64,000 nt of DNA from an uncultured Rhizobium sp. (GTDB lineage: Bacteria > Pseudomonadota > Alphaproteobacteria > Rhizobiales > Rhizobiaceae): the NCBI GenBank assembly GCA_945952315.1, contig CAMFIE010000011.1, positions 51,638 through 115,637 on the forward strand, read 5' to 3'. Below the pieces are notes generated by a model that was given only the letters and a program-made list of their open reading frames with translations, had not been told where the DNA came from and ran no database searches. The stretch's first letter is position 1; each line of letters begins with the position of its first letter. The translations under genes were made by a program, and so were the position numbers. Below are positions 33,004 to 43,997 of the stretch, piece after piece.

Positions 33004-34137
33004 TCAGGCCCGGCTCTGGGCGGTGCGGAAAGCGGCATCGAAGGAATCCAGCATGGCACCATGGTTGCGGCCCTCACGCAGGCCTTCGGTGACGATATGA
33101 GAGGCCTCGTCCTGAAACGCCATATAGCCGTTGAAGCGGGGGCGCAGATAGCCGCCTTCGATGGTGCGGCGGGTGGCGCGGTAGAAATCGAGCGTCTCGC
33201 GGTTCGGCTCCTCCGCCTCCCAGCCTGCCGCATGGCCCGCCTGCCCGCCGGAAAGCGGATAAAGGGACGCCTGCACATCGGCACCCGCCACAAAACGGCA
33301 GAAGCGGCTGGCGAGATCGGGATATTGGCTGAAGGCCGAGACCGCAAGGCCCGTGCCGCCAACGGCCGAGCCAAGAGGCGCACGCCCCTCAATCACCGGC
33401 ATGTCGGCAAAGGCGATGCGGTGGGGCCGGAAACCGTCGAGCGCGTAATTCACATAGCCATAGGTCAGCGGCACCAGAAAGGCCGGTGTTTCATCCCGGC
33501 CCACCAGATCGAGGGCGGCAATCGGGTCCATGGCGTCGATGCGCGGGTCCATGCCCGCCGTGAGTGCCGCAAGCCGGTCGAGCACCTCGAGGCCGATGTC
33601 TCGCTCCAGAAACACCTCGCCCTCCACATGCGCAGGCTTGCCGAGATGGGCAGCAAGCGTGAAGACACACATCAGCGAATGCGGGGGGCGCATCGGCATC
33701 AGCGCAAGGCCCTTGTCGGCGAGGCGTTTCACCGCTTCGAAATCGGTGACGGGTCCCTCCAGCCGGTCGGTGCGATAGGCCTGCACCTGCGTTGCGGCAT
33801 CGACCGGTAAGGCCCAGAGCCGCCCTTCATAGCGATAGCTTTCAAAGCTTGGGCCGACCGAGCCAGCCGCAATCGCCGCGATTTCCTCCGCATGCGCCGG
33901 ATCATCCAGCTGCAGCAGGCAGTGTTCCGCGGTGATCTGCCCGACATGCGGATGATCGATGATGATCAGGTCATAGCGCCGGGCAAGGTCTTCCACCGGA
34001 TAGCTCTCGAAATCCTGCAGCGAGCGGCGGTCCCAGCGGATCGTCACCCCGGTTTCGGCCTGAAAGCGGCGGGATGCGGCCTCGAGCGGCAGATAGCCGC
34101 GCGGGTGAGACCAGGTCATGCCCTTGAGTGTGGTCAT
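33004..34137 (-). CDS. Solute-binding-protein-like protein lacking a signal peptide (cytoplasmic SBP-fold protein)
   Basis: 377 aa, starts MTTLKGMTWSHPRGYLPLEAASRRFQAETGVTIRW with no hydrophobic leader. Last gene of the minus-strand sugar-acid operon; ATG 34137 lies 1 nt after the MaoC stop. Confidence 0.5.
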   Translation of the reverse strand: MTTLKGMTWSHPRGYLPLEAASRRFQAETGVTIRWDRRSLQDFESYPVEDLARRYDLIIIDHPHVGQITAEHCLLQLDDPAHAEEIAAIAAGSVGPSFESYRYEGRLWALPVDAATQVQAYRTDRLEGPVTDFEAVKRLADKGLALMPMRPPHSLMCVFTLAAHLGKPAHVEGEVFLERDIGLEVLDRLAALTAGMDPRIDAMDPIAALDLVGRDETPAFLVPLTYGYVNYALDGFRPHRIAFADMPVIEGRAPLGSAVGGTGLAVSAFSQYPDLASRFCRFVAGADVQASLYPLSGGQAGHAAGWEAEEPNRETLDFYRATRRTIEGGYLRPRFNGYMAFQDEASHIVTEGLREGRNHGAMLDSFDAAFRTAQSRA

Positions 34138-34138
34138 G

Positions 34139-34594
34139 TCAGTTGCCCGTCCCGCGCTTTTCCACCAGCAGGATGTGATCGGTGGCCAGCACCGTTTCGC
34201 CACGCTGGTTCACCACCTCGAGCCGTTCCGTCACCCGGCCCATGTTTTTCCGTTTCGGGTCATCCTCCTTGGCGGAGATCGACACTTTCGTGCGGATGGT
34301 GTCGCCGATATGCACCGGGCGGATGAAACGCAGCCGGTCATATCCATAGGAAAAGGCGACCGGATTGATCAGCGTCGCGGTGAGCCCGACGCCGATGGAA
34401 AACACCATCGTGCCATGCGCGATGCGCTGGCCGCCGGGCAGTGTCTTTGCAAATTCGGCGTCCATGTGATGCGGAAAGAAATCGCCGGTATGCCCGGCAT
34501 GCACCACGAAATCCGTCTCTGTGATGGTGCGGCCCGTCGTTTCGCGGGTGCTGCCCAGCACATAATCCTCGTAATGGATCACCTGTTCAGTCAT
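34139..34594 (-). CDS. MaoC-like (hotdog fold) dehydratase/hydratase
   Basis: 151 aa; typical MaoC region HAGHTGDFFPHHMD...IAHGTMVFSIGVG. Confidence 0.75.
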   Translation of the reverse strand: MTEQVIHYEDYVLGSTRETTGRTITETDFVVHAGHTGDFFPHHMDAEFAKTLPGGQRIAHGTMVFSIGVGLTATLINPVAFSYGYDRLRFIRPVHIGDTIRTKVSISAKEDDPKRKNMGRVTERLEVVNQRGETVLATDHILLVEKRGTGN

Positions 34595-34940
34595 GATGGA
34601 AGACCTCTTCCATCATCGCCCACCATTCGCCTTCCTTCCGGGTTTCGAGCGGCTGCTGGCAGGGCATGCAGACGGCCCACCATTCGGCATTCTTCGGGCT
34701 TGCAGCCATCTTCGCCATATCGGCGGCAAAGTCGGTGCCGACATATTCCCAATAGCCGAACAGCAGATTTTCCGGCTCCTTCAGGAAGATCGAGTAATTG
34801 GTGATGTTGCACGCGGAAATCAGCGCAAGGATTTCCGGCCAGACGGCCGCATGAAGGGCCTTGTATTGGCTGATCCATTCGGGCTTCAGGCCGATCACCA
34901 TGCCCATGCGTTCGCCCTTGCGGGCCTCACCGGTCACCAT
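34587..34940 (-). CDS. L-rhamnose mutarotase (RhaM) family protein
   Basis: Matches the RhaM fold-family signature: AAVWPEIL (vs NPIWPEL), NYSIFL (vs NYAIYL), NLLFGY, EWWAV, EEVFHH. ATG 34940 after GGAGGTGAGAC. Confidence 0.7.
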   Translation of the reverse strand: MVTGEARKGERMGMVIGLKPEWISQYKALHAAVWPEILALISACNITNYSIFLKEPENLLFGYWEYVGTDFAADMAKMAASPKNAEWWAVCMPCQQPLETRKEGEWWAMMEEVFHHD

Positions 34941-34944
34941 CGTC

Positions 34945-41358: not shown

Positions 41359-41452
41359 GACGGCCGAAATTTTTATTTGAATAGTTCATTCGTCTGTGAG
41401 TATAGTCCCTGCCATTGGCGCAAACCAATGTGCTGCCGCAGGGGAGGAAGCC

Positions 41453-42304
41453 GTGCTCATAGATTGCCATCTGCATGTCATCGATACGGGACGTCTCAGC
41501 TATCCCTGGCTGGACGGCTTTGATGCGCTGAAAGGGGACTTTCTCTATGAAACCTATGCGCTTGAGGCAAAGCGCACAGGCATTGGCGCGACCCTCCACA
41601 TGGAGGTGGATGTGGCGCCCTCCGACATCGGCCGCGAGACGGAGATGCTGAAGGACATCGCAAGGCGTCCCGGTTCGCTGATCCGCGGCGCGATTTCCAG
41701 TTGCCGCCCGGAGGAAAAGGAATTTCCCGCCCTGCTCGAGACCGCCCTTCAGGATGACTTCGTCAAGGGCTTCCGCCGCGTGCTGCATGTGGTGCCGGAT
41801 GATCTGTCCGAAGGCGCGCTGTTTCGCGAAAACATCCGGCGGCTGGAAAAGACAAGACTGACCTTTGACCTCTGCACCCTGCCGCATCAGGTGGACAAGG
41901 TTCTGGCCCTTGCCGATCTCGCTCCCGGTGTGACCTTCATTCTGGATCACTGCGGCGTGCCCGCGATTGCCAGCAACGCCCATGCGGCCTGGGCAAAGGG
42001 GATCGCCGAAATCGCCAAACGGCCGAATGTGCTGGTCAAGCTTTCCGGGATCGTTGCCTACGCTGATGCCGGAAGCTGGCAGGTGCAAACGCTGCGGCCC
42101 TATGTGGAAACCGTGCTTTCCACCTTCGGCCCGTCCCGGATGCTCTGGGGCAGCGACTGGCCCGTCTGCACGCTTGGCGGCACGCTTTCCACCTGGGTTG
42201 CGGCCACCCACGCGCTGCTCGACCCGCTTTCCAAAGATGAAAAACAGGCGATCCTTTCCGGCAATGCCACCCGGCTCTGGTCGCTTCCGGAGGTACAGGC
42301 ATGA
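41453..42304 (+). CDS. Amidohydrolase-2 family lactonase (L-fucono-/L-rhamnono-lactonase, LigI-like)
   Basis: N-terminal IDCHLHV metal-binding motif, C-terminal WGSDWP. GTG 41453 preceded by GGGAGGAAG (the track ORF starts at an upstream ATG without RBS). Confidence 0.65.
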
Positions 42305-42840
42305 CCGCGACCGTTGGCGTTTCTTCCACCTATCCGAAAACCATGCCGGCAAACCACGCGGAAATTCCGGTCTGGAACGCGGAAAACTGGTTTTACGAGG
42401 ATTTCGAGATCGGCCACCGCATCCGCTCGCTCAGACGGACAATTTCCGAAGGCGAGAGCCAGCAGTTCAACGCGCTGGTACTGGACATGCACCCCTATGT
42501 CTCCGACCAGATCTTCGCCGAGACCGAAGGCCTGTTCGGCAAGCGTCTGGTCGCCGGTGCCTTCGTCTTTTCCGCAGGGCTCGGGCTCGTGGCCACCAAC
42601 TGCGTCAACGCCTTTTCCTATGGCTATGACAAGCTGCGTTTCATCAAACCCACCTTCATCGGCGACACGATCTATACGATCCGCACCAATCTTTCCAAAC
42701 AGCCGAAATATGAGGAACTGGGCCTGATCCGCGCCTCTTACGAGGTATTCAAGGGTGAAGGCGAGCTGGTGCTCTATTGCGAGCATATCCAGACGGTGCG
42801 CTACCGAAATGGCCGCCCTGCAGATGAGGACAAGGCATGA
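42301..42840 (+). CDS. MaoC-like (hotdog) dehydratase/hydratase
   Basis: 179 aa; ATGA overlap with the upstream lactonase gene and with the downstream CoA-transferase gene. Confidence 0.75.
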
Positions 42841-43997
42841 CAGACGATGCGAACGCCGGACTGCTGGACGGCATCAACGTACTCGACATGAGCCAGTTCC
42901 TGTCCGGGCCGATGGCAGCGCTGAAGCTCGGGGACCTTGGCGCTAGGGTGATCAAGATCGAGCGCCCCGATGGCGGCGATCTCTGCCGCAGCCTCTACCT
43001 GTCCGATACGGAAATCGGGGGCGATTCCACGCTTTTCCACGCGATCAACCGCGGCAAGCAGAGCTTTGCCGCCAACATGAAGGACGAGCGTGATCTGGCC
43101 GCTATCCGCGCGCTGATCGCGCGGGCCGATGTGGTGATCCAGAATTTTCGCCCCGGCGTCATCGAACGGCTGGGTCTTGACTACGAGGCGGCGCGCGCCA
43201 TCAATCCCGGCATCGTCTATGCCTCGATCACCGGCTATGGCCCCGAGACCGAGTGGCGGCATCTGCCGGGGCAGGATCTGCTTGCCCAGGCGCGCTCGGG
43301 CGTGATGTGGCTGAACGGCGAGGCCGGTGACGGCCCGGTGCCCTTTGGTCTGGCAATTGCCGACATGCTGTGTGGAAACATCATCGTACAGGGCATTCTT
43401 GCCGCCCTCGTGCGCCGGGGCGTGACCGGCAAGGGCGCGCATGTGGAAACAAGCCTGCTCGAAGCAATGGTGGATTTCCAGTTCGAGGTGCTGACCACCC
43501 ATCTGAATGACGGGGGCCGCCTGCCGCAGAAATCCGCGTTCCGCAATGCCCATGCCTATCTGTCGGCGCCCTATGGGGTCTATCGCTGCGCGGAAGGCTG
43601 GCTGGCGCTTGCCATGACGCCGCTTGCAAAGCTTGCACCGATCCTCGATCTGCCGGCGCTTGCCACCTTTGCGCCGGAAGAAGCCTTCACCAGACGCGAC
43701 GAGATCAAGCAGCTTGTGGCGGCACGCCTTGCCGAACAGCCCGTCGGCCACTGGCTCGCCCGCCTTGAACCGGCCGATATCTGGGCGGCCGAAGTGCTGG
43801 ACTGGCCGCGGCTTCTGAAAACCGAGGCATTCCGCCAGCTTGGCCTGACCCAGAGAGTGACGCGGGAGGACAATGTCTCGATCCTCACCACCGCCTCGCC
43901 GCTCAGGGTGAATGGCAAGCGCCCGCTCTCCGCCCGTGCCGCACCCAGGATCGGGGATCAGACGGCCCTGATCCGGGAAGAGCTCGGCCTGATGTAA
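42837..43997 (+). CDS. Family III CoA-transferase (CaiB/BaiF type)
   Basis: N-terminal [33 protein letters not shown] and the conserved Asp region typical of CaiB/BaiF; 386 aa. Confidence 0.85.

Follow-up and report, generated by a model that had tools for sequence, protein, structure and literature searches.

Why should a locus whose genes point to the oxidative breakdown of a sugar also carry genes of enzyme families that make and hydrate coenzyme A (CoA) esters? The question is posed by positions 33004-43997 of a 64,000-nucleotide stretch of DNA from an uncultured Rhizobium sp. (contig CAMFIE010000011.1), which was analysed as a whole and to which we refer as the window. Twelve genes, identified by Pfam and NCBIfam, lie here in two divergent units around a regulator of the IclR family. 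Read outward from IclR, the minus-strand unit encodes a secreted solute-binding protein (SBP), two permeases, a MalK ATPase, an MR/MLE enzyme of the enolase superfamily, a RhaM mutarotase, a hotdog protein (MaoC-A) and an SBP-fold protein; the plus-strand unit comprises IclR, an Amidohydro_2 enzyme, a second hotdog protein (MaoC-B) and a family III CoA-transferase. We are highly confident of these assignments, and every component named in a preliminary description of the locus was recovered in its place or within a few codons of it. The transferase, the hotdog proteins and the SBP-fold protein, which we call the CoA module, are very probably integral to 6-deoxyhexose catabolism. We further propose, as a possibility that falls somewhat short of being probable, that the whole is an IclR-controlled, two-unit L-fucose-type 6-deoxyhexose locus in which the module acts on the CoA thioester of a sugar acid.

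The CoA module and its sugar-pathway neighbours

Within the window, the genes of the module are physically tied to those of the sugar pathway. On the minus strand, the gene for the RhaM-family mutarotase (34587..34940; 117 aa; Pfam rhaM, E 6e-34) overlaps that of MaoC-A (34139..34594; a single hotdog; Pfam MaoC_dehydratas, E 3e-22) by 8 bp, and a gap of 1 bp separates MaoC-A from the gene of the SBP-fold protein (33004..34137; 377 aa without a signal peptide, N-terminus MTTLKGMTWSHPRGY; SBP_bac_8, E 7e-10). On the plus strand, the gene for the Amidohydro_2 enzyme, a probable aldonolactonase (41453..42304; Pfam Amidohydro_2, E 4e-57), overlaps that of MaoC-B (42301..42840; Pfam MaoC, E 1e-10) by 4 bp, and MaoC-B in turn overlaps the family III (CaiB/BaiF) CoA-transferase gene (42837..43997; Pfam CoA_transf_3, E 1e-94) by another 4 bp. 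Given these overlapping and abutting starts and stops, each CoA gene should be translationally coupled to a gene of the sugar pathway.

The two units probably also share their regulation. The divergent promoter region contains a palindrome, ATTCATATTTGAAT (40528..40541), that occurs once in the window, is a candidate IclR operator and is kept in the divergent promoter of a related locus (L094) and, as ATTCATATATGAAT, in that of Rhizobium tropici (L093). Its half-site, TTTGAAT, recurs in a conserved site containing TTATTTGAATA (41373..41391, plus strand), likewise present in a single copy, in the gap between IclR (40588..41358, plus strand; Pfam HTH_IclR and IclR_C) and the lactonase gene. The TTATTTGAATA core is kept at the same place in L094, L093, L001 and L002, the half-site element is seen in five loci, and it is this presence of one motif upstream of both units that argues for common control. 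The site also overlaps a promoter-like site at 41377-41406, which is a weak pointer only, as our promoter and terminator scans returned no more matches than they did in shuffled sequence.

To see how far this arrangement extends beyond the window, we used the SBP-fold protein as a marker, retrieved 80 genome loci and mapped all pathway proteins onto them; with annotated plasmid loci and metagenome contigs added, the set comprises some 95 loci. Note that context was taken as ±10 kb per locus, that counts are consequently minima and absences in relatives minimum statements, and that open reading frame (ORF) calls are rough in the relatives with high G+C. In most of the ~95 loci, the CoA-transferase, MaoC-A and the SBP-fold protein, with or without MaoC-B, lie beside genes for RhaM, lactonase and a Gfo dehydrogenase. 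Within 10 kb of the SBP-fold gene we find MaoC-A in 65 of the 80 genome loci, an IclR orthologue in 63, RhaM in 57 and Gfo in 56, and in many genera MaoC-A sits between Gfo and a short-chain dehydrogenase (SDR) in the canonical operon. Module-bearing loci span three phylum-level groups, the Alphaproteobacteria, the Betaproteobacteria and the Bacteroidota. An association that has been kept across such distances, and through many rearrangements, is likely to be functional rather than accidental.

The relatives also tell us what kind of sugar is involved. Their SDR is orthologous to the L-2-keto-3-deoxyfuconate 4-dehydrogenase (L-KDFDH) structures 8xwk and 8y11 (E 1e-90), which have been characterised crystallographically (PMC11199699). 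Their FAH-family enzyme scores 427 bits against the model for 2,4-didehydro-3-deoxy-L-rhamnonate hydrolase, and a second enolase-superfamily enzyme (FucD) is named L-fuconate dehydratase by PGAP. On these three grounds, the sugar of these loci is of the L-fucose or L-rhamnose type. Their Gfo (L001, 6905-7984) has no solved homologue at E <= 1e-15 and resembles models of UDP-GlcNAc 3-dehydrogenase and inositol 2-dehydrogenase weakly and in its N-terminal part only, so that it may act at C1 or at another position.

We distinguish the architectures of these loci as types A to G. Type A (Ensifer, Sinorhizobium, Pararhizobium, Shinella, Mesorhizobium, Labrenzia and Brucella/Ochrobactrum) has the gene order FucD, FAH, SDR, MaoC-A, Gfo, RhaM, MR/MLE and ABC importer, with a divergent IclR and lactonase unit and a separate operon of MaoC-B, transferase and SBP-fold genes. 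Type B (Rhizobium tropici, R. lusitanum and the R. rhizogenes group) runs from the ABC importer through MR/MLE, RhaM, Gfo, MaoC-A and SBP-fold protein to SDR, faces a unit of IclR, lactonase, MaoC-B and transferase, and is without FucD and FAH; type C, represented by the window and four other assemblies, is type B minus Gfo and SDR. Devosia, Faunimonas and Dongia (type D) have a single operon of IclR, lactonase, RhaM, Gfo, in some cases MaoC-B, transferase, SBP-fold protein and MaoC-A. In type E (Variovorax, Caenimonas and Ramlibacter) a TRAP importer is followed by SBP-fold, transferase, SDR and FAH genes, with a second transferase, MaoC-A and IclR in divergent orientation, and both the sugar-oxidising steps and a conventional dehydratase are absent. 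Type F, from Bacteroidota (Rufibacter, Persicobacter), combines a RhaT symporter, the SBP-fold protein, two transferases, a second signal-less SBP-like protein, Gfo, MaoC, IclR and a beta-propeller lactonase, with SusC/D present or adjacent, and type G (Tabrizicola, Ponticoccus) corresponds to type A with a split UxaA-type dehydratase in place of FucD, Tabrizicola also having a beta-propeller lactonase. MaoC-B is absent from Dongia, Faunimonas, the Variovorax group and the Bacteroidota. In two distant variants (SBP-fold protein 33-37% identical), in loci of sugar or TRAP type, the CoA-transferase is accompanied by a crotonase-type hydratase that replaces MaoC, which suggests that it is the hydratase chemistry, not the fold, that is conserved. 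The transferase and SBP-fold genes can also be found as a pair: on S. meliloti 1021 pSymB (L089, ~731-733 kb) the surrounding 28 kb hold no ABC, IclR or lactonase genes, and in S. medicae the pair adjoins the full sugar locus.

What, then, of the window itself? In most relatives Gfo, the L-KDFDH orthologue, the FAH diketo-acid hydrolase and FucD are encoded in the same operons as the module, whereas tblastn (with Ensifer queries for Gfo and FucD) finds no homologue of any of the four across the whole 64 kb. Gene content marks the window locus as derived, by reduction, from one that is common among Rhizobiaceae and Brucellaceae, and the only sugar-acid-processing steps that appear to remain in it are the MR/MLE enzyme and the CoA module; without Gfo, the sugar 1-dehydrogenase must be encoded elsewhere. 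The reduction is neither an assembly artefact nor a sign of pseudogenisation. The window's gene order is repeated in independent assemblies at 99%, 91% and 87% identity, and the reduced architecture is found in four further assemblies, whose SBP-fold protein is 85-99% identical to that of the window. Compared with a relative of the same architecture (orthologues 85-99% identical; dS 0.27-0.76), all 12 genes have a dN/dS of 0.03-0.15, from which we infer that the reduced locus is functional.

These results bear on the preliminary description in several ways. Its statement that the locus contains neither a dehydrogenase nor an aldolase is borne out. The coupling it saw between non-phosphorylative 6-deoxyhexose genes and a family III CoA-transferase plus MaoC is upheld by the overlapping genes, the shared motif and conservation across phyla. 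It had also named a situation that would speak against this coupling, namely conventional genes close by with the CoA genes expressed on their own; instead, the window holds no such conventional genes, and the CoA genes overlap those of the sugar pathway. However, its "instead", which puts CoA enzymes in the place of a dehydrogenase and a cleavage enzyme, is not supported as a general design, since in most relatives the module coexists with Gfo, L-KDFDH, FAH and FucD.

Proteins of the module and of the sugar pathway

MaoC-A is orthologous to PDB entry 4ffu, a structural-genomics crystal structure (E 5e-82), and the Asp and His typical of hydratase-2 are kept, within a GDFFPHH motif, in 40 of 40 orthologues. 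Judged by this motif, it is an (R)-hydratase-type hotdog enzyme whose catalytic Asp and His are intact. In MaoC-B, where the motif reads LDMHPYV, the Asp is kept and the canonical His is replaced by Val in all 30 orthologues. When the two are compared with double-hotdog proteins (beta-methylmalyl-CoA dehydratase, 8hgn, and 4e3e), MaoC-A aligns with the N-terminal half and MaoC-B with the C-terminal half, so that a heterodimer of the two is plausible. When Rhizobiaceae are compared with Bacteroidota (L090, L092), MaoC-A shows 64-66% identity, but in the same loci identity falls to 48-50% for the transferase, 44-46% for Gfo and 32-34% for the SBP-fold protein, which suggests that MaoC-A is under unusually strong constraint. 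The nearest named NCBIfam models of the MaoC proteins are PaaZ and RipB/Ich; against the latter they score 51 and 32 bits with a cut-off of 340, and thus fall outside the itaconyl-/mesaconyl-CoA hydratases as that model delimits them.

The CoA-transferase is similarly remote from its named relatives. Its closest NCBIfam models are succinate-glutarate, succinyl-CoA:mesaconate and oxalate CoA-transferases, all far under their cut-offs (180 bits against 700 for the mesaconate enzyme), and its PDB matches are 10uh (E 5e-60) and SUGCT, 9br6. Placed by eye rather than by alignment, Asp176 in a GLAIADM motif lies in the region of the catalytic Asp of family III. A metagenome protein of 674 aa (P0275) is a tandem fusion of two transferase copies that are 51-54% identical to the window enzyme, which fits the idea that, where transferase paralogues come in pairs, as in the loci of the Variovorax group and the Bacteroidota, they act as heterodimers. 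P0275 was the sole long match, and no protein was found in which SBP-fold and transferase parts are fused.

The most unusual member of the module is the SBP-fold protein. Its AF2 model has a pLDDT of 91.6, and Foldseek places it at a TM of ~0.8 to CUT1 sugar SBPs with 14-19% sequence identity; a sequence search of the PDB gave only marginal matches, to LpqY. The family comprises more than 2,900 homologues, those listed being ~370-400 aa long, and forms at least 438 clusters at 50% identity (E <= 1e-30), with alignments beginning at residue 1-10. There is neither a signal peptide nor a lipobox in the family members sampled, which carry a GxTWDHPRG motif at the very N-terminus; as they open directly with this motif, none of them should have an export signal. 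The protein at 33004-34137 thus lacks both the export signal and the permease linkage of an ABC-transporter SBP and shares with it the fold alone. Residues W9, H11, R13, D56, D61, H62, S100, Y101, D113, Y228, Y231, Q289, Q299, W306, R332 and R334 are kept in homologues down to ~33% identity. On our own reading of the sequence against MalE, they occupy classical ligand-cleft positions, a pattern that fits ligand binding. We also considered whether the protein might be an SBP-fold enzyme of a known kind, but set this reading aside for now, as Foldseek against the PDB returned sugar-binding proteins only and the PDB sequence search no more than the marginal LpqY matches.

What might a cytoplasmic protein of this kind do? 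Crucially, its gene co-directionally adjoins that of the CoA-transferase in 49 of 82 loci and that of MaoC-A in 31 of 82. The preliminary description had thought of a protein that may sequester or sense a ligand; such frequent adjacency to the transferase speaks for a protein that works together with this enzyme, and less for a regulator. A distant homologue (~33-35% identity) on a Microvirga ossetica plasmid (L097, 6934-12759) lies in an oxidative sugar locus free of CoA genes. The genes translationally coupled to it there are two for UxuA-like enzymes ("mannonate dehydratase") and one each for an SMP-30 lactonase, an SDR and an aldose 1-epimerase; a CoA-transferase gene is absent. The role of the family may relate to sugar acids generally. 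A second, different family of signal-less SBP_bac_1/8 proteins directly adjoins a Gfo/Idh/MocA gene in Bacteroidota (L090, 12664-13791; L092, 12445-13677) and, at L071, 5151-6344, and L047, 559-1761, in Geminicoccus and a proteobacterial metagenome-assembled genome, so that these loci hold two cytoplasmic SBP-fold proteins.

As for the sugar-pathway enzymes, the MR-subgroup enzyme (34945..36066, minus strand; MR_MLE_N, E 1e-19; MR_MLE_C, E 2e-64) finds its best NCBIfam model in L-talarate/galactarate dehydratase (299 bits, cut-off 500) and its top PDB matches in the 3,6-anhydro-L-galactonate cycloisomerase 5xd7 (E 5e-70) and in TalrD, 2pp0 (E 2e-68). The elements that we take as catalytic, namely a KxK motif, the three metal ligands (D/E/E) and a dyad of Asp and His, align with 2pp0 and 5xd7; the dyad His aligns with a position that reads Asn in entry 5xd9. 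The enzyme is 27% identical to Ensifer FucD and belongs to a separate orthologous group, both groups being present together in relatives. It is a probable acid-sugar dehydratase or cycloisomerase, distinct from the FucD orthologue, and could nonetheless dehydrate L-fuconate. The Amidohydro_2 enzyme scores 104 bits against the NCBIfam model of L-fucono-1,5-lactonase (cut-off 400), and its best PDB match is 4dlf (E 6e-20), which we take to be the L-fuconolactonase of Burkholderia multivorans.

Possible roles of the module

Sugar oxidation by non-phosphorylative pathways counts as well charted, and we know of no such pathway that proceeds via a sugar-acid CoA ester made by a CoA-transferase. The preliminary description likewise knew of no pathway of this kind. 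Our literature search agrees, having yielded no such description and nothing that connects the oxidation of fucose or rhamnose with genes for a CoA-transferase or MaoC within the searchable set, outside which many subscription papers lie; the GapMind paper and a paper on annotation tools do not discuss these genes. We tentatively suggest that the loci represent a new, CoA-thioester-dependent branch of non-phosphorylative 6-deoxyhexose catabolism, extending from Rhizobiaceae and Brucellaceae to Comamonadaceae and Bacteroidota, with a cytoplasmic MalE-fold family as an obligatory component outside transport. The MalE-fold protein would then be a substrate-presenting subunit of the transferase, or an enzyme itself.

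How might such a branch work? Imagine that a carboxylate intermediate of the oxidative pathway, an aldonic acid (L-fuconate, for example) or a compound closely derived from it, were moved onto CoA. The thioester would acidify the alpha-proton, allowing a hotdog enzyme, be it MaoC-A alone or a MaoC-A/MaoC-B heterodimer, to eliminate or add water across C2-C3, and the transferase would then take CoA off the product and load it onto a further molecule of substrate, following CaiB/CaiD logic. The SBP-fold protein might hold the sugar acid in its cleft and act together with the transferase. That the module performs this specific step of CoA-cycling dehydration or hydration is doubtful when taken as a claim of its own. 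The order of events proposed in the preliminary description, in which a 2-keto-3-deoxy acid is activated and then hydrated, would, taken literally, just reverse a dehydration.

Evidence for and against a (de)hydration at the level of the aldonate comes from the distribution of other dehydratases. In the loci of Caenimonas, Variovorax and Ramlibacter, the module is found with L-KDFDH, FAH and an acid importer of the TRAP type, and a conventional dehydratase for acid sugars is missing; in the operons of Devosia and Faunimonas, its partners are lactonase, RhaM and Gfo, and there is no dehydratase of the enolase, UxaA or IlvD type. Another dehydratase is thus lacking from type E and from most loci of type D, and yet type E feeds L-KDFDH and FAH, which favours a step at the aldonate, as does the replacement of MaoC by a crotonase in the distant variants. 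Several points weigh against this proposal. In Rhizobiaceae the module stands beside one or two conventional dehydratases (MR/MLE, FucD), and in Dongia a gene for an IlvD/Edd dehydratase adjoins the operon; these cases weaken the simple idea that the module replaces the acid-sugar dehydratase, and imply that it is not merely a substitute for one. A 2-oxoacyl-CoA product would be chemically labile, and we found no precedent for aldonyl-CoA esters in the literature. Moreover, types B, C, D and F have no recognisable enzyme for C-C cleavage, the lack of a sugar 1-dehydrogenase in the window leaves the substrate that enters the locus uncertain, and the CoA-free Microvirga locus implies that the role of the SBP-fold protein is perhaps not tied to the transferase.

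There are a number of other scenarios that might explain the association. The missing cleavage enzyme in types B, C, D and F makes one of them a serious rival, unlikely as we think it is: the module might constitute a complete CoA-dependent lower pathway, in which activation and (de)hydration are followed by a retro-aldol or hydratase/lyase-type split that gives an acyl-CoA together with an aldehyde or keto acid, the hotdog pair or the SBP-fold protein acting as the cleaving enzyme, and which replaces the route via L-KDF dehydrogenase and FAH hydrolase (or an aldolase). Loci of the R. tropici, window, Devosia/Dongia and Bacteroidota types do hold the module without an FAH hydrolase or aldolase. 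Hydratase/lyase chemistry is found in the crotonase family, on which two variant loci draw, and in Jannaschia the module is joined by an aldehyde dehydrogenase, one being encoded close by in ~25 Rhizobium loci as well. Yet no known lyase family (HpcH, CitE, thiolase-like) occurs in any of the loci, and types A, E and G carry the module together with a complete dehydrogenase/hydrolase route. The strictly conserved His, Asp, Ser and Arg of the SBP-fold family, which might be read as a sign of catalysis, are ordinary MalE cleft positions, and Foldseek gives binding proteins and no enzymes. If, on the other hand, the module served to widen the substrate range, it would turn a second sugar acid, perhaps an epimer or a modified 6-deoxyhexonate derived from L-rhamnose, 6-deoxy-L-talose, L-galactose or O-methyl-fucose, into a substrate of the conventional route, for example by epimerisation of a CoA ester. 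Proteins with the family III CoA-transferase fold include racemases such as alpha-methylacyl-CoA racemase, which would suit this role, as would the presence of the module in type A loci next to the entire canonical route and two distinct enzymes of the enolase superfamily, the occurrence of two transferase paralogues in some loci and of a tandem fusion, and the location of the Bacteroidota versions in polysaccharide utilisation loci with esterases. We nevertheless regard it as distinctly unlikely, given that a simple 2-epimerisation needs no hydratases and that several lineages, the window included, have the module without the conventional lower route.

Two further scenarios would deprive the association of its meaning. 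It is highly improbable that the CoA genes belong to an unrelated itaconate-, mesaconate- or glutarate-type dicarboxylate pathway that happens to lie beside a sugar locus. The nearest named models, succinate-glutarate and succinyl-CoA:mesaconate CoA-transferases for the transferase and PaaZ and RipB/Ich for MaoC, would suggest as much, but scores fall far under the curated cut-offs (187 bits where 750 are required, and 51 where 340 are) and no citramalyl- or malyl-CoA lyase is present. The CoA genes overlap those of lactonase and mutarotase, MaoC-A lies between Gfo and L-KDFDH in many genera, and the linkage is kept across three phylum-level groups and several rearrangements. The chance that the window locus is a decaying, non-functional remnant is very remote indeed: the absence of Gfo, L-KDFDH, FAH and FucD from the locus and from the whole window is what one would see after the loss of the dehydrogenases, but all 12 genes are intact, their dN/dS is low at substantial dS, and the same reduced architecture recurs in four further assemblies.

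If the proposed CoA-thioester branch is real, it would add new chemistry to sugar-acid metabolism, with thioester activation replacing metal-assisted enolisation, show what thousands of genes do whose present annotation reads "extracellular solute-binding protein", "CaiB/BaiF family" or "MaoC/monoamine oxidase", and assign a first role to a family of cytoplasmic proteins with the MalE fold. Plant mucilage and host glycans are rich in L-fucose, and the pathway would therefore bear on carbon use in the rhizosphere and the gut. The full locus is present in genetically tractable bacteria, namely Sinorhizobium, Ensifer, Rhizobium tropici and Ochrobactrum.

The setting of the locus and comparison with known systems

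Window DNA has a G+C of ~60-64% and is ~80% identical at the nucleotide level to replicons of Sinorhizobium, Ensifer, Shinella and Rhizobium, a similarity that puts it among the Rhizobiaceae. Real genes were told from shadow ORFs by their codon-position G+C, and mechanically listed ORF starts proved too long for RhaM, the MR/MLE enzyme, the lactonase and the second permease; near-identical contigs correct their lengths to 117, 373, 283 and 292 aa, respectively. The CUT1 importer (36071-40385, minus strand) is complete. Its secreted SBP (39069..40385) has a signal peptide, the N-terminus MTKWLAGVSAGLLAVLAAGGSSAG and a length of 438 aa, taken from a 99%-identical contig; it has no Pfam match and is 79-87% identical to annotated sugar ABC SBPs in most related loci. 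The permeases (38044..38937, Pfam BPD_transp_1, E 2e-12; and 37172..38050, 292 aa, E 9e-21) are followed by a MalK/UgpC-type ATPase (36071..37168; ABC_tran, E 7e-33) with OB_MalK and TOBE_2 domains. A homologous ABC system is presumably the L-fucose importer of Sinorhizobium meliloti, as fitness-based annotations are reported to suggest.

The locus ends at 33004, beyond which lies an unrelated LacI-type operon (25915-32893) that encodes a second ABC system, with a MalK-type ATPase, a CUT1 SBP and two permeases, as well as a LacI regulator and a glycoside hydrolase (MGH1-like, GH63-type). In front of this operon lie a LacI-operator-like palindrome, GTTAAACGTTTAT...ATAAACGTTTAAC, with a 14-bp stem and a AAACGTTT core (32858-32893), and a promoter-like site on the minus strand (32905-32878), of a kind that the scan found no more commonly than in shuffled sequence. 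Further upstream in the window are a GH42 beta-galactosidase (17410-19473, minus strand) and an ORF of 1029 aa (19546-22635, minus strand) with an unusual fusion of three domains: an APH-type phosphotransferase, Peptidase_M23 and a class III aminotransferase. On the other side, a 712-aa SPFH/Band 7 protein (44110-46248, plus strand) directly follows the CoA-transferase gene, as it does in L094.

How does the locus compare with systems that are already known? The non-phosphorylative L-fucose/L-rhamnose pathway of Xanthomonas, Burkholderia and Herbaspirillum consists of a mutarotase, a sugar 1-dehydrogenase, an Amidohydro_2 lactonase, FucD, L-KDF 4-dehydrogenase and an FAH-family hydrolase. With it the window has RhaM, an Amidohydro_2 enzyme that is a probable lactonase, an MR-subgroup enolase-superfamily enzyme, IclR and a dedicated importer in common, whereas a sugar dehydrogenase, L-KDFDH, a hydrolase or aldolase and a FucD orthologue are absent; lacking these four defining features, the window should not be filed as a complete member. 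All module loci, for their part, have in addition a CoA-transferase, the SBP-fold protein and either one hotdog hydratase or two, none of which is part of the described pathway.

The itaconate (Ict/Ich/Ccl) and mesaconate (Mct/Mch) pathways resemble the module in joining a family III CoA-transferase to a MaoC-type hydratase, but their equivalog models are missed widely, and the window genes are embedded in sugar operons. A lyase of the citramalyl-/malyl-CoA type (HpcH/CitE) was found neither in the window locus nor in the annotated related loci. The mycobacterial HadAB and HadBC are heterodimeric hotdog dehydratases, which MaoC-A and MaoC-B resemble in that one partner has the catalytic Asp and His and the other is without the His. 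Unlike them, the two MaoC genes lie in different transcription units, and MaoC-B is missing in several lineages. With periplasmic CUT1 SBPs (MalE, LpqY, SmoF, the sophoro-oligosaccharide-binding protein) the SBP-fold protein shares its fold and, by our own reading, its cleft-position residues, while its gene is coupled to a CoA-transferase or hotdog gene rather than to permeases, and the protein has no export signal.

Precedent for CoA thioesters in an oxidative, non-phosphorylative sugar-acid route is provided by the deoxyribonate pathway, which ends in glyceryl-CoA (PMC9007349). That pathway differs in employing a beta-keto-acid cleavage enzyme with acetyl-CoA, and has neither a CoA-transferase/hydratase pair nor an SBP-fold protein.

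In the CaiB/CaiD system of E. coli, a family III CoA-transferase cycles CoA from product to substrate so that an enzyme of a hydratase family can dehydrate a hydroxy acid, and the clostridial HadA and FldA 2-hydroxyacid systems are similar. Here, by comparison, the (de)hydratase is a MaoC hotdog protein (a crotonase in distant variants only), there is no CoA ligase, the substrate is presumably a polyhydroxy sugar acid, and an SBP-fold protein is a constant companion. The likeness to CaiB is one of logic only, the window transferase scoring 79 bits against the CaiB model with a cut-off of 413, and that logic consists in the pairing of a transferase with a (de)hydratase, a presumed hydroxy-acid substrate and no obvious net need for a CoA ester downstream.

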